Shown: positions 1,525 to 55,713 of the stretch, in pieces
Position numbering within the stretch: position 1 is the first letter of the stretch
Layout: each line of letters starts with the position of its first letter
Notes under the pieces: model-generated
What the model saw: only the letters and a program-made list of their open reading frames with translations
Told to the model about the DNA's origin: nothing
The model's database searches: none
Translations under genes and position numbers: made by a program
Assembly: GCA_964402565.1 (NCBI GenBank)
Contig: CAYOCJ010000001.1
Span: 568,823 to 632,822, forward strand
DNA: 64,000 nucleotides
Source of the DNA: an uncultured Gammaproteobacteria bacterium
GTDB taxonomy: Bacteria; Patescibacteriota; Patescibacteriia; UBA1558; 2-01-FULL-52-15
Reading direction: 5' to 3'

Positions 1525-1530
1525 GTGAGT

Positions 1531-2208: not shown

Positions 2209-2323
2209 ATAAGCCGTCTTAATATTAATAGCCGTCCATTAAAGATTAGCACTTTCAGGATTTTAGTCAAGTGCCAAGGAATATTAAAATAATTGCTAAT
2301 ATTAGCAAAAATTTTTTTAATTT

Positions 2324-4525: not shown

Positions 4526-4529
4526 CGGG

Positions 4530-5723
4530 CTAAATGACCTTTAATTTTTTCCCCACATTGAAAATTTTTTCAAAAGCTTCATCAATTTGTTCGTATGAAT
4601 GCAAAGCACTCAGCGCAAATCGAATACGTGCCATTCCTTTAGGTACAGCTGGCCATCTTACTGTGGGAGCAAAAACACCTGTTAAATAGAGTTCCTCCGC
4701 AAACTTCATCGCCAAATTTTCATCACCGATGTGAACCGGCACAATTTGAGTCACGCTCGAATAGGTGTTGAAACCGACTTCGTTTAGTTTCATCCTAAAA
4801 TACTGTGCTTTTTTCATCAAATCTTTGATCACACTATTATTGGATTGAACAAATTGAATTGCTGCTCGCACAGCTCCTACAACACCTGGGGAAAGCGAGT
4901 CCGAAAACATATAGGATCTGCAAGCCACTCTCATATAATCAATTAATGCTTTATCTCCACTTAAAAAACCCCCTGAGACCCCAAGCCCTTTACTGAAAGT
5001 GGCCATATTAAGATGAACCTTGCCTTTGCGTCCAAAGTGCTCAGCCGTTCCCGCGCCAGTATCGCCCAATACACCAATCGCATGAGCGTCATCGACCATA
5101 ACAGCGGCATCGAATGCGTCCGCTAAATCTAATATTTTATCCAAATGAGCAATATCTCCATCCATTGAAAAAACTCCATCTGTCACAATGAGTTTTCTGA
5201 AACGCTTATACCGAGAAATCTTTCTTTCTAAATCGTCAATGTTATTATGAGAATAAATCACAATTTCTGCATTACTTAGTTTACATCCGTCAACAATGCT
5301 CGCATGGTTATATTCATCACTAAAAATGACAGCTTTTTTTGCAAGAAAAGACTTTCCAAACCCAAGCAAGTTGATGTAGCCTGGTATTATGCCAGCATTT
5401 GCTCCATAGCCAGATGCAATTGTTAATGAATCTTCTGAGCCAACAAATTTTGACAGTTCCTTTTCTAATTCATTATGTATCAACATGGTTCCTGTTAGAA
5501 GACGCACGCCGCCTGTTCCTGCGCCAAACTCACGAATTGATTCTATGGCTGCTTTTTTTACTTGTTCATTATTTGCTAGACCAAGATAATTATATGAGCC
5601 CATCATTAGTATTCTTTTTTTATCTACGCTAACATATGGGCCAGTGGCTGTTTCCAAAACAATACCTTGTGGCAAACCTAATTTATTTTTTATGTAGTCG
5701 AACACTTTTTGAATTTCGTCCAT
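4530..5723 (-). CDS. PLP-dependent alpha-oxoamine synthase family enzyme (serine palmitoyltransferase / Kbl / BioF-like)
   Basis: 397 aa. Glycine-rich PLP region SGYGANAGIIP, DDAHAIGVLGDTG, and a lysine motif ATFSKGLGVSGGF that is closer to the SPT-type TFSKS than the Kbl-type TLGKA. Confidence 0.8.
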   Translation of the reverse strand: MDEIQKVFDYIKNKLGLPQGIVLETATGPYVSVDKKRILMMGSYNYLGLANNEQVKKAAIESIREFGAGTGGVRLLTGTMLIHNELEKELSKFVGSEDSLTIASGYGANAGIIPGYINLLGFGKSFLAKKAVIFSDEYNHASIVDGCKLSNAEIVIYSHNNIDDLERKISRYKRFRKLIVTDGVFSMDGDIAHLDKILDLADAFDAAVMVDDAHAIGVLGDTGAGTAEHFGRKGKVHLNMATFSKGLGVSGGFLSGDKALIDYMRVACRSYMFSDSLSPGVVGAVRAAIQFVQSNNSVIKDLMKKAQYFRMKLNEVGFNTYSSVTQIVPVHIGDENLAMKFAEELYLTGVFAPTVRWPAVPKGMARIRFALSALHSYEQIDEAFEKIFNVGKKLKVI

Positions 5724-5729
5724 ACTCGT

Positions 5730-7421
5730 CTATTGACTTTTTTCAATTATATTCCTCCTCTTCAACTTCTGACTCAACGTCAGCATATCATTTTCCATAG
5801 TCCACTTCTCTGCTACCAGCTTAAATTCTCGTACTTGCTCAAATGATTGAAAATGCTCCAACATTTTTTTTATCTCTTCCGCATACACTACGTGCACGCG
5901 CTGGTTCGACAAGACCTGCGGCATCTCGTACGTAATCTGCTCCTTCTCGCACAGCATGCGTAAATTATCTAACTCAGGAACGATCAGCGCCGCTATTGCC
6001 CGCTCCGTATCTCCGTAGACCATGGCCTGAAGGATCAAAGGGCTCTCTTCTAACGCTTGCTCAATGGGCACCGGAAAAACATTACGGCCTGTCGACAATA
6101 CGATCATTTCTTTAATACGGCCGATGATTAAAAGAAAGCCATCAGCATCTATCGAACCGAGATCGCCAGTATGAAACCACCCGTCACTATCGATCACCTC
6201 TGCAGTTAACTCAGGTGCATCATGGTAGCCTTTCATGACCGAATCTCCTTTGGCTAGTATCTCTCCGTTCGGCGCTATCCGTATTTCTGCAGATGCGAGC
6301 GGCAGCCCAACGGTACCGAACTTATGCATTTCGATCTGATTTGCGGCAAGAACAGGCGATGTTTCCGTTAAACCATAGCCTTCAAGTATGAGCACCCCAA
6401 GCGATTCAAAAAATTCCGCAATGTGTTTTGGCAGCGCTCCTCCGCCTGAAACAGCGAAACGAAGCATGCCGCCGAATGCCCCGCGCACGTTGTGAAAGAT
6501 CAGCTTCTCACCTATATAATACATCAGTGCATCGACAAACGAAAGGCGTCCCTCAAGCCTCCGTACTGCCGCGCGATGTGCCCTGATGAATAGCAGGTGT
6601 ACTATGGCGTTCGACGACAATTTTTTTATTATTTTTTCATGAACTCGTTCAAAAATTCGTGGTACGCTTACCACAATGGTCGGCTTTGCAAACTGCATGT
6701 CCTCAGCAAGCGTTTCGATGCTTCGAGCATAGGTGATCTGAGCACCCGAAAGCAGCGGTACATAATACCCTGCGGTTCGTTCGAGAATGTGTGATAACGG
6801 TAAGAACGAAAAAAAAGTATCGGACGGGAAAACAGCAATATGCTGGACTAAGGCTCGTACATTGCTCAAAATATTTACGTGCGTCAGTTCAACTCCTTTC
6901 GGCTTTCCCGTTGTGCCTGAAGTGTACACTATGGTATGTACATCGTTTGATTGCGGCTCGTAAGCTACGCTGCTGTCCGGATGTGCTGCGGTCGCATCCT
7001 GAACGATTGACTCCGATTCATATATTTTTAATGTTTTGTATGTGTTCAGCTGGCTTTGCATTGATTTTTTTAAGGCCGCATCGACGCACAAAAAAGAGCT
7101 GCCGGAGTGCTGCAAAATATGCTCTACATAATCATAGGTATATGTTGAATGGATCGGAACAGAGATGCCGCCGCATCGCGCTATGGCGAGATCTGCAATG
7201 ACCCATGCGGGGCTATTCTTCATAAACAATGCCACGCGGTCGCCAGGATGAAGACCATCCTGCAACAATCGATGTGCAAATGCGTCCACCTGCTGCAGCA
7301 AGCGTCTGTATGATATGCCGTTTTTTTCTGAATCCCCGATCGTGCTCACGGCAATACGATCACTGTGCTGTTCAGCTGATTCTCGAAAGGAGTGATACAC
7401 GGAATAACGGCCAGTAGGCAT
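5730..7421 (-). CDS. AMP-dependent acyl-CoA (or acyl-ACP) synthetase/ligase, long-chain fatty-acid type
   Basis: 563 aa. AMP-binding motif YTSGTTGKPKGVELTH, GYGLTETS, WFHTGDLG, and a C-terminal lysine region. Confidence 0.85.
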   Translation of the reverse strand: MPTGRYSVYHSFRESAEQHSDRIAVSTIGDSEKNGISYRRLLQQVDAFAHRLLQDGLHPGDRVALFMKNSPAWVIADLAIARCGGISVPIHSTYTYDYVEHILQHSGSSFLCVDAALKKSMQSQLNTYKTLKIYESESIVQDATAAHPDSSVAYEPQSNDVHTIVYTSGTTGKPKGVELTHVNILSNVRALVQHIAVFPSDTFFSFLPLSHILERTAGYYVPLLSGAQITYARSIETLAEDMQFAKPTIVVSVPRIFERVHEKIIKKLSSNAIVHLLFIRAHRAAVRRLEGRLSFVDALMYYIGEKLIFHNVRGAFGGMLRFAVSGGGALPKHIAEFFESLGVLILEGYGLTETSPVLAANQIEMHKFGTVGLPLASAEIRIAPNGEILAKGDSVMKGYHDAPELTAEVIDSDGWFHTGDLGSIDADGFLLIIGRIKEMIVLSTGRNVFPVPIEQALEESPLILQAMVYGDTERAIAALIVPELDNLRMLCEKEQITYEMPQVLSNQRVHVVYAEEIKKMLEHFQSFEQVREFKLVAEKWTMENDMLTLSQKLKRRNIIEKSQ

Positions 7422-9830: not shown

Positions 9831-11711
9831 TTAATTAGTTTTAGAACTAAATGCATACAGGGCCGATACCTTGATCAGGCCGTCAGCATCAGTCGTATAC
9901 GCAAACGCCCGCGTCTGAAGCGTATCCGAGGGGTTGAGCTGGGTATAGGCGGCAAGCGCGTCCTTTTCAATCTGCATGAATTTCGCACGATCCGTGACGA
10001 TCAAACCAGTGTAATTCGCATTTATCCGCATGGTCACCGCAGCATCAGGCGTCGCATTCGGGCGTACTTCATAGGTGGCGATGGTCTTATCCATGAAAGA
10101 TGCCAGCAGGTAAGTCCCCGCTTTTTCCTGCTCTGAGACATAGACAGGGAAATTATCATTCCAGAGCTGCGCCGCTAAGTAGTCTGCAATTGCAGCATTC
10201 AAGGCATCTGGCGTCGGGTCTGCATGCGTTGGCGAACTATCGCTCAAGTGCTTTATGATAAGGTCTTTGGTAGCTCCATCAATAGAGATGACTTTGTCGA
10301 TCTGATATGTCTGGCGTTTGCCCGGAAGGCCGCCTTTTTGCACTGCTTCAGGCGATAAACCTACTGAAAAATTGAATGAAACATTATTAAGCACTTCTGT
10401 GGCCGTTATTGCCGGCGTTGTTGTGGCCACAGGACCAGGATTCACATCCAGAATGGGCGGCAAGTCCGGCGGAGGCGGTGCTGGTGTTGCATATTTCAGC
10501 CAAGCGAACCAACCAACGAGATTCAAGAGGATGAAAAAAACAACCGCCAGTGCAATAGTACGCTTCTTATCTCTGCTCATCGGCCTTGCCTGCCCATTCT
10601 CCTCTTGCGCTGCACTCGTTGGAATTTTCTTTATATCAGGAATCCAGTCGTTTTCTTTATGCTTCAAAAAGTTAATGGCATCGCTGCGGTCGCCAAGCGC
10701 GATGCGTGCTAGTCCCAACACATTCAAAAAAGTCGGCGCATACCATTCTTGCGTATCAATTTTAAAGAGTGGCGATGGTGCAGCGACGGTCGTCGGCAGA
10801 CCCAAATTCGATGAAAAGTAATCATCGATCCCTGCGAGAGACGCGGTACCCCCGGCAAGAAGAACTCTGTTCACGGCAGTGCCCGTTTTTCGTTCATAGA
10901 ACTTGATGAAGACCAGTAATTCGTCTTTGAGAGGCTGTACTTGGCCCTGAATGATGAGCATTTCGGCACCGTCGCCAGAGCCGTTCGCTGAACGCAAACC
11001 GCTGGCCATTTTTCTCTGTTCCGCTTCATTCTGGCTGATCTTCAACTTTTCTGCGAGCGCTGAGGTGATATTATTGCCGGCAATATTGATATTGATCGAT
11101 TCCTGCAATGCCCCTGTTCTAAAAATTGACGCTATCGTTGTCCGTGCACCGATATCAAGCAAAAGGACTGTCTCATCAACGCGTTCATCAATGGTCGCCA
11201 TCGCCAGCGCAAGGGATTCGAGCGTTACCAGCGAAACCTTCATTGATAACCCCTGAAATAACGTTACATATTCTTGAAGCAGCGGTGCATTCGTCGCAAC
11301 GAACAGATATTCTTTTGTATCACCAAGCGTCCGCAGCATACTAAAATCCGCAGCGATTTGTTTCGCGTCGAGCGGCATAGTCTGGACCGCTTGCGAGAAC
11401 AGAGCGGATGGAATTTGCTTCGCCGGCAGTTTCGCACCGATCGAAAGCGTTTCTACGTATACGCGCGACTCGGGCAACGTTATCACTACCTCATGGGCCG
11501 AGATCGGCGTTGGCTGGGCTTGCGCCAAAAGCTGCTTCACGGCTGCGCGAAGCTTATCCTGATCTATGATCTTTCCATCCTCAATGATGCCGCTTTCAAG
11601 TACTATCCTCGACTGGCTTTTGATCCGCAGGCTGCCTTTTTCTCTCAATAATTCAAGAGCCTCAATGGAAAAATCAGAAATATTTATTGCACAGGTCTTT
11701 CGTTCTAACAT
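9831..11711 (-). CDS. pilM: Type IV pilus assembly protein PilM (actin-like ATPase) fused to a PilN-like bitopic C-terminal region
   Basis: 626 aa. PilM-like DIGARTTIASIF and LLAGGTASLAGIDDYFSSNLGLPT, then a TM helix (IALAVVFFILLNLVGWFAWL) and a ~230 aa extracytoplasmic tail. Confidence 0.65.
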   Translation of the reverse strand: MLERKTCAINISDFSIEALELLREKGSLRIKSQSRIVLESGIIEDGKIIDQDKLRAAVKQLLAQAQPTPISAHEVVITLPESRVYVETLSIGAKLPAKQIPSALFSQAVQTMPLDAKQIAADFSMLRTLGDTKEYLFVATNAPLLQEYVTLFQGLSMKVSLVTLESLALAMATIDERVDETVLLLDIGARTTIASIFRTGALQESININIAGNNITSALAEKLKISQNEAEQRKMASGLRSANGSGDGAEMLIIQGQVQPLKDELLVFIKFYERKTGTAVNRVLLAGGTASLAGIDDYFSSNLGLPTTVAAPSPLFKIDTQEWYAPTFLNVLGLARIALGDRSDAINFLKHKENDWIPDIKKIPTSAAQEENGQARPMSRDKKRTIALAVVFFILLNLVGWFAWLKYATPAPPPPDLPPILDVNPGPVATTTPAITATEVLNNVSFNFSVGLSPEAVQKGGLPGKRQTYQIDKVISIDGATKDLIIKHLSDSSPTHADPTPDALNAAIADYLAAQLWNDNFPVYVSEQEKAGTYLLASFMDKTIATYEVRPNATPDAAVTMRINANYTGLIVTDRAKFMQIEKDALAAYTQLNPSDTLQTRAFAYTTDADGLIKVSALYAFSSKTN

Positions 11712-12143
11712 CTAATCAAGTATATCTTTATAATCGATAATGGTAAATGGGTTCGTCGCGATATTCACGTTCGTATTGGTCCTTCCGACCATGCTTCCGC
11801 CCAAAGCACTGGTAGTTGTAGCACTTGCATTGATCGTGCGGGTATTGCCGGAGCCGGCGATAATTGCCGTGCAATGCGTATTCGTGTCACCTGAGTTGAC
11901 ATTCAGGCTGACAGCGCCCGATACTGTATTATCCCTTCTGAGGCGCGCTAAAGCATTATTGACGCACGAGGACGTTAGATTTCCGACCTTGCTCGCTGAT
12001 AAGCGTGAATCACTTGCTATGGCCTCATCAGCATTCATGAGCGCGATAGAAAGGCCATAAATCAAAATGAACGACGTGATGATCATGACTGAGATCAGCG
12101 CTATAATACCCCGATTCGCATGAGATGCACGAGTCGTGCTCAT
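11712..12143 (-). CDS. Small N-terminally anchored protein, possibly a non-canonical minor pilin-like component (lacks the G-F-T-L-I-E motif)
   Basis: 143 aa. N-terminal hydrophobic helix NRGIIALISVMIITSFILIYGLSIAL, a Thr/Ser/Asn-rich tail, and ATGA-coupled to neighbours inside the pilus operon. Confidence 0.35.
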   Translation of the reverse strand: MSTTRASHANRGIIALISVMIITSFILIYGLSIALMNADEAIASDSRLSASKVGNLTSSCVNNALARLRRDNTVSGAVSLNVNSGDTNTHCTAIIAGSGNTRTINASATTTSALGGSMVGRTNTNVNIATNPFTIIDYKDILD

Positions 12144-13873
12144 GGGCTTTTCCTGAATGCTGAAGTACTGCTTGTCGTGTAGGTTGCTAAGTTAAAATTT
12201 GAAGGCAATGCCTGGCTGTCATAGCCCACATTAATAGTCGTTTCTATAGCCTGCCTGGAACCGACGGTCGTAGTAGCAAATACTAGCCCTCCGGACAATA
12301 CGCGCGCCCGTGACCGATCGACCAAATCAAATGTTTCAGTGTGGGAGCTTAATGGCGGAACATCGCAAGACGAGTTTCTTCCCGCACTCGGATAATTCTG
12401 ATAGCACACTAATTGAACCCCGTATTGGTATGGCACGAGGGCGCCGCTCGTTCTCAAGCGTTTCTGAGTCCCGCTTGAATCAGATCCTGAATATATATAC
12501 TCGCCGTCGAGCACCATGCCTCTGACATCATCGGTGTCAAGAAGTGTGCCTATAATCATCCCAATACCGCTATCGCTAAACGGTCCATCGGCGGCACATG
12601 GAGCTCCATCTCCGGTACACGGCGCCAGGTCAGAAAGCTGCCGTTTTTCTATAAGCAACTCATTTACGTTTCCAAAAAACTCACCTCCGGTGAACATGTA
12701 ATTGCTGTCAATGACCATCGACCACGGAAGAGCTGCGCCTATTACTGAATAGTCTGTCAAAACAGTAGAGCCATCGGTCAATGACACTTTCGCGACATAC
12801 CAATCGTAGTATGAATCATACCCTGCCGCATAAATATAGGATGAATTAACGGCGATTGCGGTACCAGCGCTTGAGAAGGTATCGTATACCTCGCCATAGA
12901 CCGATCCGAACCCGCCGACAACATCGCCGGTTGAAAGTGTCCGTTTGACTATAACTGATCCGTCATGGTTCACGCCGGGAAAACCGCCAGTGTGGTAATA
13001 ATAATCTCCGATAAGGTACATATACGTCGAGTCAATATCAATGCCCCACAAATATCGAAAAGAATTCCCCGTGAGCGAAAGGACTCCGCCGTGTACAAAA
13101 TTCGGATCATATGCACCGCTAATTTTACTTCTTTTTTCTATGCGCCAATCATTCCCGTCATCACCCGCGATATACAGATAGTCCGAGTCCGTTTTCATAC
13201 TATGGATCGTGGCGCCGCCAGTGCTCTCGACGTATCCGTCAGAGTCGAAGCCAGTATCCAGAGTTCCGGTTGCGGCATCTCTCTTTTCAATGGCGAAGTA
13301 GAGCACGCCCTGTCCGCCGATATACAAATTACCGCTGTCATACACCAAACTTCGAATGCTAACAGCACTGGTAAGTGTTCCGAGGGTGCCGAAATGCTTT
13401 TCAAGCGACAGGTCTGACTTTCTGCGCTTCGTAATCTGATTGCCATATGCCGTGTAAATATAGGTTCCATCCATGGCTATAGCTTGAGCGCCCGGCGTCT
13501 CTGAACCGGTGGTGCCCGCAGGCTTTATTGCAATTGCGTTCGTTTCATAATCCCCAGCACAGCCCGGAGGTAAAAATTTGAGTGATGATGTCGCGAAATA
13601 GAGATATAAGGTAGATGGGTCTGTATAACACTTATTACCGGAGCTGTCAGTGACAAAACCATCAGAATTCCTTACCAAAAAATTAACTAAGGACAACACA
13701 CGTGAAGCCGCGGCATGCATATCGCTGGTGATAGAAAAACGCAGCCGGGAGCCCTGTATAATAAAAGCGATATTGGAAAGCGCGACCAGAATGAAGGCCA
13801 GCACGCCAACGTAAATAATGAGCTCTACCAGCGAAAAACCCTTTTGGATCTTTTTTTTGAAAGGAAGCTTCAT
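12140..13873 (-). CDS. Type IV pilin-like protein with a class III (prepilin) signal, fused to a large beta-propeller-like repeat domain (PilY1-like tip-adhesin architecture)
   Basis: 577 aa. N-terminus KGFSLVELIIYVGVLAFILVAL is a prepilin cleavage/assembly motif. Recurrent Y-x-Y-x-x-G blades (YIYTAYGN, YLYIAGDD, YMYLIGDYY, YIYAAGYDSYYD, YMFTGGEF, YIYSGSDS). Confidence 0.6.
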   Translation of the reverse strand: MKLPFKKKIQKGFSLVELIIYVGVLAFILVALSNIAFIIQGSRLRFSITSDMHAAASRVLSLVNFLVRNSDGFVTDSSGNKCYTDPSTLYLYFATSSLKFLPPGCAGDYETNAIAIKPAGTTGSETPGAQAIAMDGTYIYTAYGNQITKRRKSDLSLEKHFGTLGTLTSAVSIRSLVYDSGNLYIGGQGVLYFAIEKRDAATGTLDTGFDSDGYVESTGGATIHSMKTDSDYLYIAGDDGNDWRIEKRSKISGAYDPNFVHGGVLSLTGNSFRYLWGIDIDSTYMYLIGDYYYHTGGFPGVNHDGSVIVKRTLSTGDVVGGFGSVYGEVYDTFSSAGTAIAVNSSYIYAAGYDSYYDWYVAKVSLTDGSTVLTDYSVIGAALPWSMVIDSNYMFTGGEFFGNVNELLIEKRQLSDLAPCTGDGAPCAADGPFSDSGIGMIIGTLLDTDDVRGMVLDGEYIYSGSDSSGTQKRLRTSGALVPYQYGVQLVCYQNYPSAGRNSSCDVPPLSSHTETFDLVDRSRARVLSGGLVFATTTVGSRQAIETTINVGYDSQALPSNFNLATYTTSSTSAFRKSP

Positions 13874-13876
13874 ACC

Positions 13877-16800
13877 TTATTCGAAATCAATCTGGACATC
13901 GTATAGCGTCGGCGTATCGAGATTCGAGGCGCAATTCGTAAGATCAGCCCGATACTGGAAGAAACGTTTCCCCTGTAACGTACTATCTCCTGAAAGATCT
14001 TGAGACACACTGCTCCCGCTTCCGGAATATGCAGTAGCAGATGCCCATGGCGTCGACGTAGAATAATCAGCAGTAGGTCCCGTATTAGTTCCGCGCACTT
14101 TCAAGGTAAGCGCACAGCCGGTCGGAATATTTTGAGACCAGGTTATCCTGAGCGCATTACGCTGGACGACGGCAGCATAGGTAGATACATCGATCGACTG
14201 GGATACCAGATACCCGGAACCTGCGTAATTCAGAACCACGGTGCCTGGCTGCGTGGTGAAGCTCCAGCTTGTGGTATCAGCTATTCCGGCATACGCGTTT
14301 GACGAGGCATCGAGAAATGCGTAGGCATCGATCTGTATATAATACTCTGTATTGCCAGCCAAAGTGACAGACGGGTCGATGGTTATCGTATTGGTACCGC
14401 TGCCAGTAACCTGGCTTAAGCCAGCGTCAATAGCCTCAACTGATGAATCATCTGATGTTTTTTTAATGTACACAAAATAACCTGCTTGAGCTGTAACAGC
14501 CTCGCTAAACGTAAGCACTAAATTCGTGGTTGCTGAAATACCAGTAGAGTTGTCTACCGGAGAGAGCGTATTCACCGTCGGAGCAGTATTGTCGACAACC
14601 GGTATCAATAGCGTCGCAGGCGTTGCCTGATCATTTGAAAAATCGTTGACCGTCAGGCGCAGACAATACGCCCCGCCATTTGCTGATGCAGCATCGGTCC
14701 CGCTTTTCCAGGCAAAATTTAAGGTATTTGCTCCGGATGCAGTCTTGATCTTCTTCGTAGAAGCCGTACCTATCTGGTAGCTATTGGAGTTATTCAGGTC
14801 GACGGTTCCATTGGTATCATAGTACGACGCCGTAATAGGACCTCCATTCAGCTGTTCCGGATCTGGCCCTGCAAGGGTAGCCTTGGTCCAAGATCCAGTA
14901 CATGAAGAGCCGCTTTGGTATTCAATTAATGCTTTTGACAAGTCGCCATTCGGATCATTCACGGTGATGTTAACGGGGATAATACCGGATGAATTAGACG
15001 GTGCCGACCCCCAGGTACCGGTAGGACGATTGTCGAAGGTGACACTGGTCTTACTAACCGTCGTAGCAGTGTTACCAGCTAAATCAGTTGCGTCGAATGC
15101 AAAAGTATAAATAGTGCCATTGACCAAGGTTGGTGCACTGGTACAACCAGAGCTCATATTAAAATTATTATGTCCTCCGGTATTCAGTGCAGCGCCTGTA
15201 AGCGTGCAGGTTTGATTGCTTGCTGCTGTACCGCCAGTGCGCGTCATGACGATCGTGCCACTTGCGATCGCTTCACTCAAGGTATAGCTCACATCTGATG
15301 ATGTGGTCACACTATCGATGGTCGAGCTGGAGTTCGGTAATACGCCCGATATAGTCGGCGATGTGGTGTCATAGGTCACACTGGTCCGTGAAACCTGTGT
15401 CGCCGTATTGCCTGCGGCATCAGTTGCATCAAAGTTAACTGTATAAATCGTGCCGTTGACTAGCGATTGCGCACTGGTACAGCCATTGGTCGTGTCGCTC
15501 AAATCAAGGTTATTATGTGCTCCGGAGTTCAAGGCAGTCCCCTTCAATGTACACGTGTGAGTAGTCCCATCAGTCGTACCACCAGTACGAGTAAAGACAA
15601 TGGTACCGCTCGTGATAGCCTCGCTTAAGGTATAACTGACATCAGATGAGCTCGTGATGCTGTTAATAGAGGTGCTCGATGCTGGCAATACTGATGAAAA
15701 TGCAGGCGCTGTAGTATCGTAGGTGACGCTTGTCGCAGATACTGTTGTTGCAGCATTTGCAGCGGCATCTGTGCCGTTAAATGCGAAGGTGTATACAGCG
15801 CCATCGACCAGCGTCTGCGCAATGCTGCAGCCATTGGTCGTATTCGTCATATCGAAGTTGTTATGCGCTCCGCTATTCAGCGCAGTACCGACCAAGGTAC
15901 AGGTATGCGGCGAAGATCCGTCTGATGTGCCCGATGTTCTGGTGACGGTGATGGTACCGCTTGCTATTGCTTCGCTTAAGGTATAGCTGACATCTGAAGA
16001 ACTTGAAATACTATTAATAGAGGTGCTTGATGCTGGCAAGGTCGAAGAAAAAACCGGAGCTGTTTTATCTGCAACAGTCGTAATCATAGGATAATGCGGA
16101 TAGCTATCGAGCGCAGTGCCTCCTGATTTTACTACTTTGAAACAATAATTTGTGCTTGCTGGCGTTCCATTATCGATCAAAGCATAGTCCCACATACCAT
16201 TGCCATTCAGTAGCATGGTATCGACGCTATCAGTGAAGTTATTCGCTTCTTCATAGGTTTGCTTATGTATCGTCTCTGATCCATGCGTCGGGTCGCTTGC
16301 ATTACTGGTAAGCGTAGCGCCATCGGCCGGAGAATTTGCAGTATTATAGGCAACGAGAGTCGAACTGGTGACATCAGTGTAGCTGGATGGTGTTCCTCCG
16401 GATGGTGACGCACAAGTGCCAGAGCCTTTATCCACGTACTGCAGTTTAAAATCCTGACCATTCTTGTACAACGGAGAGCTTGACGCGTGAACCAGTTCAC
16501 GCAGTCTGAACTGCTGGCCATTCGTGGTCAATGAGCCATTCGTATCCTGGGAAGCCAGCGCACTTCCCACGTCGGTCGAAGCAGCATTTGCAAAAAATCG
16601 AAACCCATCTTGAGCGTAGGTCTTCGCATGCCACGCTGCATACCGGTACGTCACGCCGCTCGAGTCTGTTTCAGTATTGTTGCCGACCGTAAAGCCATCG
16701 TTAGTGGTGGTCGTAATACGCGACGCGGCATTTGAAGTACCAGAAAAGTATTGTGTATTATCCGTTGCGATAGACCCGCTCCGGTGCACGCCTGAAACTG

Positions 16801-18640
16801 CACCGGTTTGCTTGATAAGCGTAAGATCAGGCTGGAATGTCAGCCCAGTGATCGAATGGCCGGCAGATCCTGTATACGACCCCACTTTGAAATTTGTACC
16901 GGTCTTAAATGCAAACCAGTAATAGTTGCTCGCTGACGTATTTACATTTGCATCGGTACCAAGCGTAAATCCAGCGCTATCCAGAGATGTGATAGCTCCT
17001 GAAGCAATGTCAGCAGTGGCAGCAAAATGCATAGCGACAGTACCGCCAGTGGACGATGTCTTCCAGATTCCCCATGTCGCTCCAAAACTTCTGGTGACAA
17101 GCAGATCCGGTTGGAAAGGCACCCGCGTGACGCTGCGCGCAAGTCCATTCCCATAATACACACCAATGGCAAAATCAGCAGCGCCGGTATTGGTCTCGGG
17201 ATTGAATGCATTTCCGAATGCCTGCCACCGATAGACTTGCGCATTCGTGTTCACCGTCGCGTTCGTACCAAGGGTAAAACCATCAGAATCAAGTGACTTG
17301 ATCTGATTATACGTTGCAGCAGAATTTAATGATAAATTTATTGTAGTCGTCGCAAGTAAATTCATCCTATACACGGTGCCGGATCCGGCGTCACTTTTGA
17401 TAATAACCAGATCTGGCCTAAACCCAACTCCGGTAATGGCTTTATTGTCGCTTCCGTTGCCTGTATACGAACCTGTGGCCATTGTAAAGGTTCCAGACCC
17501 CGATGGGGTACTTGCCCCTCCAATGGCAATGTAGTTATACGCAATTAAATTTGTATTTGAGTTCGCTCCCGCGCCTACGCTAAATTGCGCAGAGCCAAGC
17601 GACGTAATATGAGTTGTCGCATTCGCAGTATTAGTAAAAAAGCTCGTACTATCGCCGAAGCTTTCCGTTTCGTTAAAAACAGCGGCATTCGCTCCTGCAG
17701 ATTTTGTCATAGCAAACACTGGATTCAAACCTGTGGTAGTGATGTTTTGAGATGTGCCATTCCCTGCATACGTACCTGCAGCGAATGCACCGGATACCGT
17801 CTTAAATGCAACATAGTAATACGTTACTGCATTGGTATTTACTGCTGCTGCATTCGCTACGGTAAAACTGGTTGAGTTCAGCGAGTAAAAATTCAAATGT
17901 CCTGTTTCATTCGCGGTCGCTGAAAAGAAAGCTGCTGTTCCGGAAGCATGACTTGATGATGTCCACACGCCCTGGCCGGCCGTGGTTGCCGACTTGACCA
18001 TCACGAAGGCCGGCTGAAAACCCGTGCTGATGGTCTGGCTTGCAGCGCCATTGCCTGTATACGAACCAACGCAGAATGTACCGCTGCTCGAGCAATCTGA
18101 ACCATCAAAGGCTATCCACTTATACCGGGTAATGACGGTGGTTGTCAGTGCATTGACCCCGGCATCAGTACCAAGGGTGAATCCTCCATTCGAAGCCGAG
18201 TCCAGTGATGTGATTGCGCTGCCGAAATCTGCTGTCGCCGTATCGAGTACATTAGAATTCGTGCTGGATATAGACGTTGATTTCCAGACAACGCCTTTGC
18301 CGGCGGCAGTGTCGGCCTTGATCATGACCAGGTCGGGTGCTGAGGAAAAACCTAATCCTGAAATCGATTTCGTTGCATTTGAACCTATATAGTACCCTGT
18401 TTGAACTGAGAATGTTGCAGCTTTCGCATGTTCAACTCCGGGAAAGAGATAGCCCGAGTAGCCAAAAAACGTCCACAGCAAATGGATGAAGATCGCTGTC
18501 ACATACAAGACCGTATGCTGTATCCTCCGCACATGGCGCGCATGCAGCAAATCCATTTTTTCACCAAGCGCATGCTTCCACGTCTTTTTTCGCGATACTG
18601 TCTTTATCTTCATCTTTCTTTTTGTCTTCTTTTTTTGCAT
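13877..18640 (-). CDS. Giant membrane-anchored surface protein with N-terminal ~90-aa repeats (GFTLGT modules) and C-terminal SbsA/Big-like Ig domains; putative pilus-associated adhesin
   Basis: 1587 aa. N-terminal basic stretch then one TM helix. At least six GFT(L/V)G(T/N) repeat modules. Three near-identical ~114-aa Ig-like repeats (TAPVFSSTLPASSTSINSISSSSDVSYTLSEAIASGTI...), then a further SbsA_Ig-like domain. The start codon choice is uncertain; several in-frame Met. Confidence 0.6.
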   Translation of the reverse strand: MQKKKTKRKMKIKTVSRKKTWKHALGEKMDLLHARHVRRIQHTVLYVTAIFIHLLWTFFGYSGYLFPGVEHAKAATFSVQTGYYIGSNATKSISGLGFSSAPDLVMIKADTAAGKGVVWKSTSISSTNSNVLDTATADFGSAITSLDSASNGGFTLGTDAGVNALTTTVITRYKWIAFDGSDCSSSGTFCVGSYTGNGAASQTISTGFQPAFVMVKSATTAGQGVWTSSSHASGTAAFFSATANETGHLNFYSLNSTSFTVANAAAVNTNAVTYYYVAFKTVSGAFAAGTYAGNGTSQNITTTGLNPVFAMTKSAGANAAVFNETESFGDSTSFFTNTANATTHITSLGSAQFSVGAGANSNTNLIAYNYIAIGGASTPSGSGTFTMATGSYTGNGSDNKAITGVGFRPDLVIIKSDAGSGTVYRMNLLATTTINLSLNSAATYNQIKSLDSDGFTLGTNATVNTNAQVYRWQAFGNAFNPETNTGAADFAIGVYYGNGLARSVTRVPFQPDLLVTRSFGATWGIWKTSSTGGTVAMHFAATADIASGAITSLDSAGFTLGTDANVNTSASNYYWFAFKTGTNFKVGSYTGSAGHSITGLTFQPDLTLIKQTGAVSGVHRSGSIATDNTQYFSGTSNAASRITTTTNDGFTVGNNTETDSSGVTYRYAAWHAKTYAQDGFRFFANAASTDVGSALASQDTNGSLTTNGQQFRLRELVHASSSPLYKNGQDFKLQYVDKGSGTCASPSGGTPSSYTDVTSSTLVAYNTANSPADGATLTSNASDPTHGSETIHKQTYEEANNFTDSVDTMLLNGNGMWDYALIDNGTPASTNYCFKVVKSGGTALDSYPHYPMITTVADKTAPVFSSTLPASSTSINSISSSSDVSYTLSEAIASGTITVTRTSGTSDGSSPHTCTLVGTALNSGAHNNFDMTNTTNGCSIAQTLVDGAVYTFAFNGTDAAANAATTVSATSVTYDTTAPAFSSVLPASSTSINSITSSSDVSYTLSEAITSGTIVFTRTGGTTDGTTHTCTLKGTALNSGAHNNLDLSDTTNGCTSAQSLVNGTIYTVNFDATDAAGNTATQVSRTSVTYDTTSPTISGVLPNSSSTIDSVTTSSDVSYTLSEAIASGTIVMTRTGGTAASNQTCTLTGAALNTGGHNNFNMSSGCTSAPTLVNGTIYTFAFDATDLAGNTATTVSKTSVTFDNRPTGTWGSAPSNSSGIIPVNITVNDPNGDLSKALIEYQSGSSCTGSWTKATLAGPDPEQLNGGPITASYYDTNGTVDLNNSNSYQIGTASTKKIKTASGANTLNFAWKSGTDAASANGGAYCLRLTVNDFSNDQATPATLLIPVVDNTAPTVNTLSPVDNSTGISATTNLVLTFSEAVTAQAGYFVYIKKTSDDSSVEAIDAGLSQVTGSGTNTITIDPSVTLAGNTEYYIQIDAYAFLDASSNAYAGIADTTSWSFTTQPGTVVLNYAGSGYLVSQSIDVSTYAAVVQRNALRITWSQNIPTGCALTLKVRGTNTGPTADYSTSTPWASATAYSGSGSSVSQDLSGDSTLQGKRFFQYRADLTNCASNLDTPTLYDVQIDFE
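15040..16080 (-). repeat. Three tandem near-identical ~340-nt coding repeats (Ig-like domains) inside the giant surface protein gene
   Basis: Visible DNA repetition, e.g. gtgacactggtc...gccattgaccaaggt / ...gccgttgactagcg / ...gccatcgaccagcg units, encoding TAPxFSSxLPxSS...VSxTSVTYD repeats. Boundaries approximate (+/-30 nt). Confidence 0.7.
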
Positions 18641-18642
18641 AG

Positions 18643-19263
18643 CTAGCCGGTTGTCGTGGCTAATTCAAGTCTGCCCGTCGTAGACGGAACATCAACACGA
18701 TACTGCGTTTCCCAGTTTGTCGATCCTTCGGTCCATGCAGACGTGCTCGTCGCGCCGCTCCACATGGTCTGAGACATGCGCACCGCATCATCATTCGTAA
18801 GATACGCTTCGAACTTATAATCGCTCTGTCCGGCAGCGCTAATAACAACGACGACCTTTTTCGTATATTTATCATTGACGCCGCTTCCGATGGCGCCCGT
18901 AGCCAAATCTCTCTGGACTGAACTGATATAGATAGACCTGGTCAAGCCGCTTCGAACCTCAGTTCCTGTACTGATCACCCAGTCGCCGCTTGCATTCTTA
19001 TCCAGGCGGACCGATGTCGCTGAGTCATACGAATCACCTCCGTCATTCGCTTCCAATGAGCCCCAATTTCTATCAGAGATGATCTCTAAAGCTTCCATAG
19101 CATCGTCAGCGAATCGGGCTTTTTTTTGTATATCTCCAGTCCCGGTGAATGCAGAATAACTGCCTGTTGCAAGGTAGGTAATGCCGGCGCCGAGGATCAA
19201 AAATACCCCGATTGCTATAGTCATTTCTATCAGTGAAAATCCTTTAGTACAAAGCGTAGCCAT
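18643..19263 (-). CDS. Type IV pilin / pseudopilin (prepilin-type N-terminal cleavage/methylation domain)
   Basis: 206 aa. N-terminus MATLCTKGFSLIEMTIAIGVFLILGAG is the canonical G|FSLIEM pilin motif. Confidence 0.75.
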   Translation of the reverse strand: MATLCTKGFSLIEMTIAIGVFLILGAGITYLATGSYSAFTGTGDIQKKARFADDAMEALEIISDRNWGSLEANDGGDSYDSATSVRLDKNASGDWVISTGTEVRSGLTRSIYISSVQRDLATGAIGSGVNDKYTKKVVVVISAAGQSDYKFEAYLTNDDAVRMSQTMWSGATSTSAWTEGSTNWETQYRVDVPSTTGRLELATTTG

Positions 19264-19288: not shown

Positions 19289-20551
19289 TTAATAATAATC
19301 TGCATAACCGGTGCTATCCATTTGTATGGTTGTCGTCGATACACCGTTCGCGACATAGATTTTTGAAGGTACAAACTCATTCGTGGTTGTTGTCCTGGAA
19401 AAAATGGAAAGACCTCGTATCTGCTGGGGTGTGAGCGGACGGTCATATACAAATACATCATCAAGATATGCCTGGGAATTCATGCGGTTTGTATTGTCTG
19501 AATTAAGGCCTATATAGCTTTCATTCATTGACTCCCCCGAGCAGGTAACGGTAGTCGCTGCTGCCTCATCACCATCAATATACAATTTTAATTTAGAACT
19601 AGATGCATCATACGTTGCGGCAATATGGTACCAGCTAGCTACCACAAGAGGATTCGAAGCAACCGCAGTATAGTAATCATGGCCATCGTAACATACTGCG
19701 GTCGGTTTATTTGATGCATCAATATAGATGCCTCCGGACTTGTAGTAAGCATCCGTAGTGGTCTGCGATCCGCCAATAAGCGCAGACTGTATATAGGAGC
19801 CGGTGGTTCCGACCTCCATTGCATAGGTAAAGCCGGTGCTTGCCTGATGGCCAAGAATGGTATTTGGAATATCGATCTGCTCGCCTGTTCCTGAATTTGC
19901 GACCGTTGTTTGCCGCGACCCTGAACCGCCATTAAAGCCGACTGAATATGCTGGCTGAAAATACAAAGTGCCCGATGCAGTATTATTATTCCCTGAAACA
20001 TCGAACAGATCTTGAAATGCGTACCATCCGAAATCCGGATAAAATCTGGTCATTGAATATGACTCCATCGAATAGCGCGCCACTGGGTTCGGCGGCAGAC
20101 CATAGGTGTTCATCAGATACCCTGAGTAACGCTCAAAATACGGGTCTATGCCTTCAAGATCGGTCAGGTAATTATTTGCCCGAAGGGTAACGCGTGTATC
20201 GTAGCTGCTGTCACGCGAGGCAAAATCAGTACCTTTGAAAAGCACGACGCAATCGACGGCGGTTGAAGACCCGCAATCGGTAGTGCCATTGTCCACGAGA
20301 TGTATGCCCCAATTTTCATGTTCTCGATTCGAAACTGCATACTGCCTGCCGGTCTCGAGCAAATGGACAATGTCCCGTGCATCATCAACGGTCTGGTCAG
20401 CCCCGGTCGCGAAACTATTGATGAATCGCGGCACAAAGGCTCTGAGCAAGAGCATGACAACGGCAAGAACAACGATCATCTCGAGCAAGGTAAAGCCCGC
20501 ATTTCCAGAGTGATTCTTATATGTTCGCATGCGCCTCCGCAACATAACCAA
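19289..20551 (-). CDS. Type IV pilin-like protein with a C-terminal LamG/concanavalin-A-like jelly-roll domain (minor pilin or adhesin)
   Basis: 420 aa. NAGFTLLEMIVVLAVVMLLL prepilin motif. C-terminal WYHIAATYDASSSKLKLYIDGDEAA...YLDDVFVYDRPLTPQQI is typical of LamG-like domains. Confidence 0.65.
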   Translation of the reverse strand: MVMLRRRMRTYKNHSGNAGFTLLEMIVVLAVVMLLLRAFVPRFINSFATGADQTVDDARDIVHLLETGRQYAVSNREHENWGIHLVDNGTTDCGSSTAVDCVVLFKGTDFASRDSSYDTRVTLRANNYLTDLEGIDPYFERYSGYLMNTYGLPPNPVARYSMESYSMTRFYPDFGWYAFQDLFDVSGNNNTASGTLYFQPAYSVGFNGGSGSRQTTVANSGTGEQIDIPNTILGHQASTGFTYAMEVGTTGSYIQSALIGGSQTTTDAYYKSGGIYIDASNKPTAVCYDGHDYYTAVASNPLVVASWYHIAATYDASSSKLKLYIDGDEAAATTVTCSGESMNESYIGLNSDNTNRMNSQAYLDDVFVYDRPLTPQQIRGLSIFSRTTTTNEFVPSKIYVANGVSTTTIQMDSTGYADYY

Positions 20552-20562
20552 AACAAGTTTTT

Positions 20563-21771
20563 TTATTGATGGATCCCTCCGATGATATTGCCGATCGGCA
20601 GGATGATGGACAGAGCCATAAAGGCAACCAAAAAACCAATGACCAGCAGGAGCACCGGCTCCAGAATGGTCGAGAGATTCTTCGAAAAAGAGTCAAGCTC
20701 ATCTTCATAGAACTCTGCCAGGTATTCGAAGGTTTCTGATAGATTTCCCGAAAGCTCTCCGACATTGATCATTTTCGTAACTAATGAGGGGAAAAAATGA
20801 GGGTACCGATGCAAGGTAACCGAGAGTGCTGTTCCCTTACGAACTTCCACCAGCATGGCTGCCACGCGATCCTGATACAGCGAATTGCTTAATGCGCGGG
20901 TCATGATGTCGAGCGACTCGTCGATGGTCAGTCCTCCCTGAAGCATCAATGCCATGGAACGGTTGAAGTTTGCCAGATTCGAGGTTTTACTGAATTGATG
21001 GCTAATCGGCAGATGATATACCAGCCAATGAATGTAGCGTTTGGTTTTCGGCAGTTTATTCGCGACGATCACAGCCACGATAGACCCGACAGCCGCAACG
21101 GTCACCAGGTACCAATACTTTTGCGAGAATGTCGCCACGACGATGAAAATTTTGGTCACCAATGGCAGAGCGACATTCAATGATTTGAACAATTGCAAAA
21201 ATTTCGGCAGGATGAAAATCGACAGCGTGATACCAAGGCCGCCTAATGCGATGATCACGATCGCCGGGTACATCATGGCCGACTGGATCTTGGAATGCAG
21301 GTCATGGTCCTTCTTCAGCTTGACGCTGAGGTTGATCAAATTCCTTTCCAAAGAACCGCTCTGCTCACCGATCTTCACCATGTTCACGAAAAATTCATTG
21401 AATGTGTACGGGAATAGGCGCAAGCCGTCAGAAAGCTCACTCCCTTTTCTCACGAGTTCAAGCAAACGCCGCAGGATCGATTTCATTCGTCCGCGCGACT
21501 GCTCATATAACGCTTCAATGCTCTCATCCAATACCATGCCTGACTTGATCATCAGGGATAAATGCTTGACGAAGAGCATCTTTTCTTTCAGCGGAACGAT
21601 GCCGAAGCCAGACAATGGCCGCTTGTGATATTTCTTGGAAACTGATTCCAGCGACTGCACGTCATAGCCCTGCTGCATCAATGAAAAATGCGCCTGCTTC
21701 AAATTTTCAGCATCGATATCCCCTTGGAAGATCTGCTTATTTTTATCGAGTACTCGATAATGGAATTGCAT
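20563..21771 (-). CDS. pilC: Type IV pilus / T2SS inner-membrane platform protein PilC/GspF
   Basis: 402 aa. Two T2SSF-type repeats with three TM helices. 1-nt gap to pilB downstream. Confidence 0.9.
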   Translation of the reverse strand: MQFHYRVLDKNKQIFQGDIDAENLKQAHFSLMQQGYDVQSLESVSKKYHKRPLSGFGIVPLKEKMLFVKHLSLMIKSGMVLDESIEALYEQSRGRMKSILRRLLELVRKGSELSDGLRLFPYTFNEFFVNMVKIGEQSGSLERNLINLSVKLKKDHDLHSKIQSAMMYPAIVIIALGGLGITLSIFILPKFLQLFKSLNVALPLVTKIFIVVATFSQKYWYLVTVAAVGSIVAVIVANKLPKTKRYIHWLVYHLPISHQFSKTSNLANFNRSMALMLQGGLTIDESLDIMTRALSNSLYQDRVAAMLVEVRKGTALSVTLHRYPHFFPSLVTKMINVGELSGNLSETFEYLAEFYEDELDSFSKNLSTILEPVLLLVIGFLVAFMALSIILPIGNIIGGIHQ

Positions 21772-42299: not shown

Positions 42300-42388
42300 T
42301 GCCCAGGAAACAAACACCAGCGCAGATTGGCAATCGCCCTTTAATTCATTTATAGTTAGTGTGTGTTTAAAAAAAATTTAACGCACTG

Positions 42389-55633: not shown

Positions 55634-55678
55634 ATAAGCAGTATAGCATACTCGTCCTGGTTGAAGACATCCGTCAGT

Positions 55679-55707: not shown

Positions 55708-55713
55708 GTATGC

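Follow-up and report, generated by a model that had tools for sequence, protein, structure and literature searches.

What would a pilus do with a subunit that begins as a prepilin and continues as a beta-propeller? The question is raised by an open reading frame (ORF) of 577 amino acids, here called the target, which starts with ATG and occupies positions 12140..13873 (minus strand) of the window, the whole 64,000-nucleotide stretch of DNA analyzed here. The original prediction had described a protein of more than 540 residues at exactly this place, which the reading frame bears out. The bacterium appears to be ultrasmall and CPR/Patescibacteria-like, of a Komeilibacteria-like lineage. Attachment to other microbes is the way of life of CPR/Patescibacteria, and type IV pili are the best-supported device for it, one that to our knowledge has been tested experimentally in Saccharibacteria only. 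As the target combines a prepilin signal with a propeller body and its gene lies among minor-pilin genes, a binding module displayed by the pilus is the most reasonable reading of it. Specifically, we consider it probable that the target is a modular minor type IV pilin with the propeller inserted in its head, displayed by the pilus as a ligand-binding module.

The target gene in its operon

The gene is part of a tightly packed operon, which reads in the following order:

21773..23446, minus strand: PilB/GspE-type assembly ATPase with an MshEN domain (T2SSE, 431.6 bits; TIGR02538, 541.8 bits)
20563..21771, minus strand: PilC/GspF platform protein (T2SSF, 183.9 bits; GspF/PilC models)
19289..20551, minus strand: 420-aa modular prepilin with a concanavalin-A-like (Laminin_G_3, LamG) module at its C-terminus (Laminin_G_3, 67.2 bits; N_methyl, 23.7 bits)
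18643..19263, minus strand: 206-aa prepilin (KG/FSLIEMTIAIGVF), a minor pilin (N_methyl, 21.4 bits; TIGR02532; motif scan)
13877..18640, minus strand: 1587-aa surface protein, upstream of the target (Pfam DUF7483 in four matched stretches, Big_5; Big_3_3 just under the cut-off)
12140..13873, minus strand: the target
11712..12143, minus strand: 143-aa pilin-like protein without Glu5 (RG/IIALISVMIITSF), downstream of the target (sequence, conserved position)
9831..11711, minus strand: 626-aa protein whose N-terminus is a PilM (actin-like) domain, followed by a long C-terminal extension (PilM_2, 105.8 bits; TIGR01175, 115 bits)

The target is thus co-encoded with pilus machinery (PilB, PilC, PilM, and other pilins). 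This gene order is kept in five GTDB genomes and several metagenome contigs (Komeilibacteria/Patescibacteria MAGs), and the slot of the target between other prepilins and PilM is kept across many loci. The start of the target lies 3 nt from the stop of the giant upstream gene, whose product has, at its N-terminus, a hydrophobic but non-prepilin-like segment and whose position is conserved in related loci. At its other end, the TGA of the target overlaps the ATG of the 143-aa protein (ATGA), a homolog of which invariably comes after the pilin of the target slot in related loci. As the 143-aa protein has no Pfam or NCBIfam match, we infer its class and regard it as a candidate GspK/PilX/ComGG-like cap subunit. 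Elsewhere in the window, 55567..56553 encodes a candidate major pilin. A phmmer search of the target against all ORFs of the window returned only the target itself, and no tRNA or Rfam family was found anywhere in the window.

The propeller and its relatives

From its N-terminus, the predicted parts of the target are as follows:

13838..13873, minus strand: leader peptide of a class III (prepilin) signal, residues 1-12 (MKLPFKKKIQKG) (Pfam N_methyl; G12 invariant)
13667..13837, minus strand: pilin alpha1 helix, residues 13-69, with F at +1 and E at +5 (FSLVELIIY...), the polymerization stem (AF2 helix 15-69; invariant residues)
13502..13666, minus strand: residues 70-124, the first part of the globular pilin module (FLVRNSDGFV, LYFATSS, conserved C82/C105) (pilin-module HMM, AF2)
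12431..13501, minus strand: inserted seven-bladed beta-propeller, residues ~125-481, with seven repeats of 44-68 aa (repeat HMM, AF2, Foldseek)
12143..12430, minus strand: residues 482-577, the second part of the globular pilin module (GVQLVCYQNYP, conserved C490/C503, ATTTxGSRQAIETT, C-terminal SSTSAFR) (pilin-module HMM, AF2)

The repeats follow the pattern D-x-x-Y-x-Y-x-x-G ... W-R-I-E-K-R ... G-x-L-D-x-x-F-G-x-x-G. A single-repeat HMM derived from an unrelated protein, P0014, identifies seven units in the target (residues 132-167, 176-217, 225-265, 278-322, 340-355, 385-412, and 453-480) with a total of 74.2 bits, whereas the highest score among 200 shuffles of the target is 5.6 bits. Six or more Y-x-Y-x-x-G/D repeats had been anticipated; there are exactly seven units, and the motif forms the core of each (YIYTAYG, LYIGGQG, YLYIAGD, YMYLIGD, YIYAAGY, YMFTGGE, and YIYSGSD). 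AlphaFold2 (AF2), given a 13-sequence alignment, returned a model with a mean pLDDT of 80.8 and a pTM of 0.73, in which a 55-residue N-terminal helix (15-69) is accompanied by an all-beta region (131-473) with seven groups of strands. Foldseek against the PDB gave 582 significant matches (best E=5.6e-12), and the best 50 of 582 are all propellers, so that the propeller first suggested from the sequence stands up to structure prediction. The blade number is read from the secondary-structure string and the repeat counts of the model; eight blades were considered and rejected, as both the repeat HMM and the grouping of the strands point to seven and seven-bladed WD40 proteins have the higher target-normalized TM-scores.

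The best PDB fold matches are WD40 proteins, BamB, and designer propellers, with TM values of 0.63-0.68 for seven-bladed WD40 proteins. No homolog of the target's body was found in the PDB by phmmer or profile sequence searches, and the propeller, whose top fold matches are generic, yielded neither a binding or metal site nor a match to a lectin. The top Foldseek matches are 8-bladed designer proteins.

Word-indexed searches returned only 13 proteins for the target and, for the propeller-less ortholog P0136 described below, only P0136 itself; an exhaustive profile search was used instead. It places the propeller repeats in 15,422 representative clusters (set at 50% identity), in which protein sizes reach 4,951 aa. 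Repeats of this type are also found joined to a peptidoglycan peptidase of the M23 family (P0012) and to two unrelated prepilins (P0064 and P0078), as expected of a portable binding module, and with this distribution the module has no specificity to pilus biology. The M23 peptidase protein encoded at 44485..46614 of the window is without the repeat. On sequence comparison, the repeats are part of a very large family without a Pfam model, related to the delta-60 repeats distantly at best. Delta-60 proteins are predicted to adopt a propeller fold; their repeat length is similar to that of the target, and the '...G-x-L-D-x-x-F-G-x-x-G...' signature is one that we take to be common to both families, whereas the W-R-I-E-K-R strand motif is specific to the family of the target. 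The delta-60 model TIGR02608 (curated cut-off, 76.5 bits) gives sub-threshold matches on relatives (P0034, 40.9 bits; P0007, 33.4 bits; P0014, 19.6 bits) and no match on the target itself at E<=0.01, and a literature search for "delta-60 repeat" found no papers.

In comparison with the closest relative, identity is 53% for the target, 92% for PilB, 88% for PilC, and 90% for AMP phosphorylase; invariant columns make up 10% of the propeller versus 19-29% of the pilin parts. The target would appear to evolve fast, as is typical of exposed binding proteins.

PilX2 of TM7x (Nanosynbacter lyticus, Saccharibacteria) is a minor pilin whose seven-bladed propeller lies at the C-terminus; it is required for host binding, which its deletion halves (PMC11623550). 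The target is likewise a pilin-like CPR protein with a seven-bladed propeller, encoded among pilus genes, and the original description of such a fusion as unusual was overstated, as PilX2 had already been published. The two proteins differ in that the propeller of PilX2 is of the RCC1 type and C-terminal and no PilD signal is predicted (PMC11623550), whereas the target has a canonical G/F/E5 signal and an internal propeller; with no RCC1 match by Pfam at E<=1, the target does not belong to the PilX2 type.

It is conceivable, although unlikely, that the target is a modular pilin whose propeller is not a host-cell adhesin but serves DNA binding (competence pilus), acts as an enzyme or enzyme-targeting module (e.g., for cell-wall degradation at the tip), or forms a dock for the 1587-aa protein. 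DNA uptake has been proposed for CPR pili, and known modular pilins include some whose module is a peptidase or binds DNA (PMC8179133); the fusion to a peptidase in P0012, the presence of an enzyme, CylK, among the fold matches of the propeller, and the giant surface protein gene directly upstream with its 3-nt gap would fit such roles. Against them, if not decisively, stand the lack of a catalytic-family signature in the target at E<=1, the effect of the closest experimental analogue, PilX2, on host binding and not on competence, and the fast-evolving propeller surface, which fits a variable ligand.

Far less probable is a minor pilin covalently fused to a true PilY1/PilC homolog, in which the propeller would be the PilY1 C-terminal domain, including its calcium-dependent control of extension and retraction. 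The general fold class and the logic of a neighborhood among minor pilins are indeed shared: PilY1/PilC of Pseudomonas and Neisseria also has a seven-bladed propeller tied to the minor-pilin tip complex of type IV pili (T4P), with a presumed role in adhesion. PilY1, however, is no pilin and owes its presentation at the tip to a minor-pilin complex (PMC8179133), unlike the target, which is itself a prepilin with a pilin module. The PilY1-type C-terminal propeller (IPR008707, per PMC8179133) is unrecognizable in the target by sequence, since Pfam at E<=1 matches N_methyl only and no other family, PilY1 included, and a PDB search with the ortholog profile retrieved no chain of PilY1 at E<=10. PilY1 is also missing from the best 50 of 582 Foldseek matches, which show no preferential structural match to it; relatives give the sub-threshold delta-60 matches instead, and the repeat extends over thousands of clusters that include very large proteins. 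The label "PilY1-like", applied to the propeller originally, is not sustained by these comparisons, and we continue to favor a ligand-binding module carried by a minor pilin.

Prepilin signal and split pilin module

The target begins with MKLPFKKKIQK-G/FSLVELIIYVGVLAFILVAL, with cleavage predicted after G12. Residues 8-32 match Pfam N_methyl (PF07963) with 22.3 bits, a thin margin over the cut-off of 21.2 bits, and scores reach 29 bits among homologs of the target's pilin module. G12, F13, L15, and E17 are invariant in 7/7 full-length orthologs (37-54% identity), with Y21 also invariant in alpha1, and a motif scan finds G-F-[ST]-L-[ILV]-E followed by a hydrophobic stretch in three other ORFs of the window. 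A PDB search with the ortholog profile matches pilin N-termini only, e.g., Geopilin and MshA, and NCBIfam matches on the ortholog P0023 are N-terminal only, such as GspH and PpdB. The motif had been called a textbook one, and its conservation and the N_methyl match agree with that description. As no Peptidase_A24 (prepilin peptidase) was found among the 58 ORFs scanned by Pfam in the 64-kb window (nearly all of those of >=100 aa, excluding shadow ORFs inside longer genes), processing of the prepilin is assumed.

That the target is no pilin, its N-terminus being an ordinary Sec signal peptide or anchor and the propeller protein, on the surface or anchored in the membrane, just happening to be encoded in the operon, could draw on the marginal N_methyl score, the lack of a PilD gene among the ORFs scanned, and the non-prepilin, hydrophobic N-terminal segment of the adjacent giant protein, but it is highly improbable in view of the G-F-x-L-x-E invariant in the seven orthologs, the diagnostic Glu5 within a hydrophobic stretch that runs on as the 55-residue predicted helix, the higher N_methyl scores of pilin-module homologs, the slot between other prepilins and PilM kept in many loci, and the presence of PilB, PilC, and three more proteins with the same motif in the window. 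A class III signal is supported over the ordinary Sec signal that had been considered at the outset.

Within the modular pilin that we favor, the propeller appears to be an insertion that splits the pilin head and not a C-terminal appendage. An HMM of the pilin module aligns in two pieces, positions 2-113 with target residues 10-122 (184 bits) and positions 112-204 with residues 482-577 (120.6 bits), and is contiguous in propeller-less homologs that occupy this operon slot, either bare (185-209 aa) or with a LamG domain at the C-terminus, among them five ~430-aa prepilins that bear LamG (E 1e-17 to 1e-28). The propeller region is missing from LamG-type homologs and from P0136, an ortholog of 209 aa that is ~51% identical on both sides of the insertion and has a homolog of the 143-aa protein after it. 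In the target, the first pilin half (AF2 strands 89-94 and 111-121) ends in the beta-strand AIAIKP, and the second half comprises strands 482-492, 511-516, 530-537, 540-550, and 563-569; the AF2 model of P0136, with a helix (12-66) and seven strands, has a plain hairpin (108-115/120-127) where the target has its propeller. The propeller is predicted to replace the hairpin turn between strands ~113-118 and ~485-491 of the pilin head, with the contacts between the two halves deduced from the secondary-structure string and the repeat counts. P0136, the closest propeller-less ortholog, is known from one 1,126-bp contig; an assembly artifact was considered and rejected, since the pilin module is uninterrupted in five more distant homologs on long contigs. 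The original prediction had a propeller fused covalently to a pilin stem; the split HMM match and the propeller-less homologs instead put it within the pilin globular fold, which would show that a pilin head is able to tolerate the insertion of a whole propeller.

The AF2 secondary structure, with helix 15-69 and strands 89-121 and 482-569, would fit a "lollipop" pilin, in which an alpha1 of ~50 residues packs on an antiparallel beta-sheet. Solved pilins were not matched, in that Foldseek of the propeller-less pilin model (pLDDT 70.7) against the PDB gave nothing significant, the best being avidins at E=0.3, and a GspJ/PilW-like class for this minor pilin would be a guess from gene order alone. 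GspK and PilX/PilK-type minor pilins have a domain inserted in the pilin beta-sheet and are expected at the tip (PMC8179133); GspK and the target have in common an extra domain within the pilin fold and an expected position at the filament tip. The insert of GspK is alpha-helical and Glu5 is absent, whereas the target keeps Glu5 and its insert is an all-beta propeller, and no match of the target to GspK was found in sequence (NCBIfam) or in fold (Foldseek of the propeller-less pilin model).

Proposed display on the pilus and possible exchange of modules

Modular pilins have been described in Streptococcus sanguinis, whose PilB bears a vWA module and whose PilC bears a concanavalin-A-like one (Raynaud et al. 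2021, PMC8179133; Shahin et al. 2023, PMC9934059). Like these, the target consists of a class III signal, a small pilin module, and a bulky non-pilus module, and its gene lies in a T4P locus among minor pilins, with the module expected to be displayed for ligands. Unlike in these, the module sits inside a beta-hairpin of the pilin module and is a propeller of a repeat family without a Pfam model. The architecture is new among modular pilins, a class described before, and is not a new kind of system. The InterPro-based survey in PMC8179133 sought extra domains by database signatures and was thus unable to detect the propeller of the target, and the accessible part of its supplementary text has no "propeller" or WD40 entry. 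More generally, as a very abundant propeller repeat family is unmodeled in domain databases, domain-based surveys of modular pilins will miss such proteins.

A mechanism can be proposed in which the product would have a 12-residue leader (G-1, F+1, E+5), an alpha1 of ~55 residues, and a beta-sheet head with two conserved Cys pairs, a ~360-residue seven-bladed propeller taking the place of one hairpin turn in the head. A prepilin peptidase encoded elsewhere would remove the leader, and alpha1 would keep the target anchored in the membrane. The target could then join a priming or tip complex with the neighboring minor pilins, including the translationally coupled, E5-less 143-aa protein, which would be GspK/PilX-like by position. 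As PilB/PilC extrude the pilus, the propeller would be shown at or near the tip, where it may act as an adhesin or lectin-like ligand-binding module; for a CPR episymbiont, a host-cell surface structure would be the likeliest ligand. Tip location, ligand, and adhesin function are what we infer for the target.

Comparison of sequences suggests that the pilin in this slot behaves as a generic carrier, as relatives are bare (185-209 aa), have a C-terminal LamG, or have a propeller and further domains. It could be speculated, more tentatively, that the slot before the E5-less cap-like pilin is a cassette holder, which takes domains either C-terminally (LamG) or in the beta-hairpin (a closed seven-bladed propeller with DNRLRE-type domains) and would permit rapid retargeting of host recognition in episymbionts, and that the unmodeled "WRIEKR" repeat family (>15,000 clusters at 50% identity) is a general surface-recognition scaffold, which prepilins have acquired on at least three separate occasions. 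The locus provides a concrete, conserved candidate for the receptor-binding subunit of a Komeilibacteria-like CPR lineage, and as the modules in its slot are interchangeable (none, LamG, propeller, or a propeller with extras), host-range determinants of uncultured episymbionts may be predictable from sequence. The 420-aa LamG pilin of the window directly parallels S. sanguinis PilC, and it also has a parallel in the second large minor pilin of TM7x, PilX1, with its jelly-roll or lectin-like domain.

A propeller inserted within a pilin head

The most informative result of this analysis is that the propeller of the 577-aa target protein is an insertion within a pilin fold and not an appendage to it. 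The open reading frame, with an ATG start, lies exactly where the original prediction placed it, and its N-terminus (MKLPFKKKIQK-G-FSLVELIIYVGVLAFILVAL) matches the Pfam prokaryotic N-terminal methylation motif PF07963 over residues 8-32 with 22.3 bits, only just above the cut-off of 21.2 bits. This marginal score is backed by conservation of the motif residues, as G12, F13, L15, and E17 (prepilin positions -1, +1, +3, and +5) are invariant in all seven full-length orthologs at an overall identity of merely 37-54%, and by three further window ORFs in which a motif scan detects G-F-[ST]-L-[ILV]-E, the next 15 residues being all hydrophobic or small. The signal is thus of the predicted prepilin type rather than an ordinary Sec signal. 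Pfam scans of 58 window ORFs found no prepilin peptidase gene.

The unrelated 1150-aa protein P0014 contains 57-aa repeats, and a single-repeat HMM built on them picks out exactly seven units in the target (132-167, 176-217, 225-265, 278-322, 340-355, 385-412, and 453-480). Their scores sum to 74.2 bits, whereas 200 shuffled versions of the target reach no more than 5.6 bits. The Y-x-Y-x-x-G/D repeats noticed originally are genuine, the motif being the core strand of every unit. An AlphaFold2 model from a 13-sequence alignment (mean pLDDT, 80.8; pTM, 0.73) gives the following elements.

Elements of the AlphaFold2 model of the target
15-69: helix of 55 residues
89-94 and 111-121: two strands
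131-473: all-beta stretch with strands in seven groups
482-569: five more strands

Foldseek returned 582 PDB matches to this model at E<=0.001, of which the best 50 are all propellers, including the designer protein Tako8, the WD40 proteins beta-TrCP and G-beta, BamB, and CylK; within these 50, the top target-normalised TM-scores (0.63-0.68) and lowest rmsd belong to seven-bladed WD40 proteins. The predicted fold is therefore a beta-propeller, as had been proposed, and its assignment as seven-bladed rests on the repeat count and the grouping of modeled strands.

The insertion becomes visible in P0136, a 209-aa ortholog that matches only the two ends of the ortholog profile. It is ~50% identical to target residues 1-118 and 484-577 and lacks the whole propeller, the junction reading ...AIAIKP[propeller]GVQLVCYQNYP... 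in the target and ...VGVTVSTTLSGVTLTCYRDYP... in P0136. At the insertion point its AlphaFold2 model (pLDDT, 70.7) has a plain beta-hairpin (108-115/120-127), and a homolog of the 143-aa pilin-like protein encoded downstream of the target comes next on its contig. No solved pilin in the PDB was matched by the P0136 pilin-head model in Foldseek. As P0136 rests on one single 1.1-kb contig, independent support for the propeller-less form was sought. An HMM of the pilin module aligns to the target in two separate pieces, positions 2-113 with residues 10-122 (184 bits) and positions 112-204 with residues 482-577 (121 bits), and is matched contiguously (positions 2-202; E, 1e-17 to 1e-28) by five ~430-aa prepilins from other metagenomes. 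Two of the five (L011 and L013) carry a C-terminal Laminin_G_3 domain by Pfam scan, and the others share their C-terminal motif. All five, together with 185-191-aa homologs, occupy the operon slot of the target, with the 143-aa homolog and PilM encoded downstream. Since bare, LamG-bearing, and propeller-bearing homologs share one slot, the slot pilin is a conserved core minor pilin serving as a carrier.

Forms of the slot pilin
Form 1: bare
Form 2: with a C-terminal lectin-like module
Form 3: with a propeller inserted in the hairpin
Form 4: with the propeller itself bearing DNRLRE-type and other inserts (P0007, L010)

Both chain ends adjoin in a closed propeller ring, which makes a propeller a natural insert. 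The invariant cysteines C82, C105, C490, and C503 all fall within the pilin halves. The window also encodes a DsbB.

Type IV pilus operon and proposed function

The target belongs to a type IV pilus operon whose genes are tightly packed and all run in one direction.

Genes of the pilus operon
21773..23446 (-): PilB
20563..21771 (-): PilC
19289..20551 (-): 420-aa prepilin with concanavalin-A-like Laminin_G_3 (67 bits), by prepilin motif and Pfam; second modular pilin of the operon
18643..19263 (-): 206-aa prepilin
13877..18640 (-): 1587-aa surface protein with DUF7483 (four matched stretches) and Ig-like Big_5 and sub-threshold Big_3_3
12140..13873 (-): target
11712..12143 (-): 143-aa pilin-like protein without Glu5 (RG/IIALI...), no Pfam or NCBIfam match
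9831..11711 (-): 626-aa protein, N-terminal PilM and ~290-aa C-terminal extension

Only 3 nt separate the upstream stop from the target ATG, and the target TGA overlaps the ATG of the translationally coupled 143-aa gene as ATGA; in all related loci, a homolog of the latter is encoded downstream of the slot pilin. The gene order is kept in five species-representative genomes, always followed by an AMP-phosphorylase-type gene. Three of the five are labeled Patescibacteria or Candidatus Komeilibacteria and two 'uncultured Gammaproteobacteria'. For the latter deposits, L003 and L007 (binchicken and SRP269290 co-assembly MAGs), both the gene content and a close resemblance to Komeilibacteria/Patescibacteria MAGs suggest a placeholder or erroneous label. 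Between the window and the closest relative, identity is 88-92% for housekeeping and motor proteins, compared with 53% for the target, 55% for the LamG pilin, 57% for the 143-aa protein, and 62% for the giant 1587-aa protein, a sequence pattern as would be expected of exposed, fast-evolving components.

The propeller is pilin-borne, as originally proposed, by its prepilin signal, predicted fold, and pilin operon, and a binding role is the most plausible reading. Cleavage after G12 by a prepilin peptidase encoded elsewhere would leave the processed protein held in the membrane by its alpha1 helix, from where it could join neighboring minor pilins in a priming complex. Its place in the gene order would make the target the GspJ/PilW-like member, and the E5-less 143-aa protein would form the GspK/PilX-like cap. 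This assembly would reach the pilus tip, where the propeller could bind a ligand, most plausibly on the surface of the cell that hosts this episymbiont-type bacterium.

The 1587-aa protein within the minor-pilin block has an N-terminal hydrophobic segment that is not prepilin-like. In L012, L014, and L016, a 1037-1076-aa protein begins with the 206-aa-pilin homolog, so that the window may hold the split form of a giant modular pilin; alternatively, the 1587-aa giant may dock on pilins as PilY1 does. The PilM fusion measures 584-631 aa in most related loci, and the 626-aa protein could be a PilM-PilN/O-type fusion, which might suit a machine of monoderm style. Within the window, no secretin was detected. 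A candidate major pilin, with MKRHG/FTLIEILIV... and a GspG-type T2SSG domain, is encoded at 55567..56553 (+), 42 kb from the operon; its homologs directly follow PilM in L013, L016, and L018. A 153-aa ORF without family match (28120..28581, -), whose homologs lie just downstream of PilM/pilin genes in L012, L013, and L024, may be an unrecognised pilus component.

A Che-like module (23459..27937, -) lies directly upstream of pilB, with the same layout in the Komeilibacteria-type loci L006 and L007. Pil-Chp-like control of pili in a genome of CPR type would merit separate attention.

Genes of the Che-like module
23459..24058 (-): response regulator with C-terminal zinc ribbon
24055..25626 (-): Hpt+HATPase CheA-like kinase
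25617..26051 (-): CheW
26048..27937 (-): MCP

Repeat family and modular pilins

The comparisons made here do not support describing the propeller as PilY1-like. At E<=1, Pfam assigns the target no family except N_methyl; PilY1 is absent from the PDB matches to the ortholog profile, where pilin N-termini alone match, and from the best 50 of the 582 Foldseek matches. No Pfam model covers the repeat (apparently spurious matches on relatives: RNF220, RIP, and DUF7599), a ~55-aa pattern of D-x-x-Y-x-Y-x-x-G ... WRIEKR ... G-x-L-D-x-x-F-G with its own W-R-I-E-K-R strand and G-x-L-D-x-x-F-G-x-x-G turn. As relatives score 40.9, 33.4, and 19.6 bits with the NCBIfam delta-60 repeat TIGR02608, below its cut-off of 76.5 bits, the family may at best be a distant delta-60 relative. 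The profile of target orthologs finds the repeat in 15,422 proteins among 1.84 billion cluster representatives (50% identity), 617 of these at E<=1e-30, and the full pilin-plus-propeller architecture, among the matches listed, in a handful (P0001, P0004, P0005, P0006, P0023, and truncated P0028). Repeat proteins reach 4,951 aa (family P0014-P0158, found from window 12431..13501). The repeats adjoin an M23 peptidase in P0012, while P0064 and P0078 each carry them C-terminal to an unrelated prepilin module, and these arrangements point to a portable recognition module that pilins would have taken up more than once.

Calling the fusion unusual was an overstatement, as modular pilins (PMC8179133) and TM7x PilX2 (PMC11623550) are already published. 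Modular pilins were defined from S. sanguinis PilB (vWA) and PilC (concanavalin-A-like) by Raynaud et al. 2021, who report >1,200 proteins and 264 architectures, several from CPR phyla, cite GspK as an example of a pilin sheet with an inserted domain, and explicitly draw the parallel with PilY1 (PMC8179133). S. sanguinis PilC has the same architecture as the LamG prepilin of the window. PilX2 of Saccharibacteria TM7x is pilin-like, and host binding drops by half when it is deleted (PMC11623550). Like the target, it carries a seven-bladed propeller; however, PilX2 has a C-terminal, RCC1-type propeller and no predicted PilD signal, whereas the target combines a canonical prepilin signal, an unmodelled repeat family, and insertion in the pilin fold. 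It is by these differences a new variant within an established class of module-carrying pilins.

Other features of the window

GC content is 0.35-0.39 in 1..6000 (asparaginase-like, 7TM histidine kinases, and aminotransferase) and 0.41 at 42001..44000, compared with ~0.47-0.50 elsewhere. An OLD-family nuclease-type gene (30843..32183, -; AAA_15/AAA_21 ATPase and OLD-like TOPRIM) is a candidate anti-phage defence gene. At 33663..37893 (-), a 214-aa sortase and the end of a 1202-aa surface protein (DUF11, DUF7507, and DUF4215 repeats) overlap; the two are probably an adhesin and its anchoring sortase, as would fit a monoderm-type envelope.
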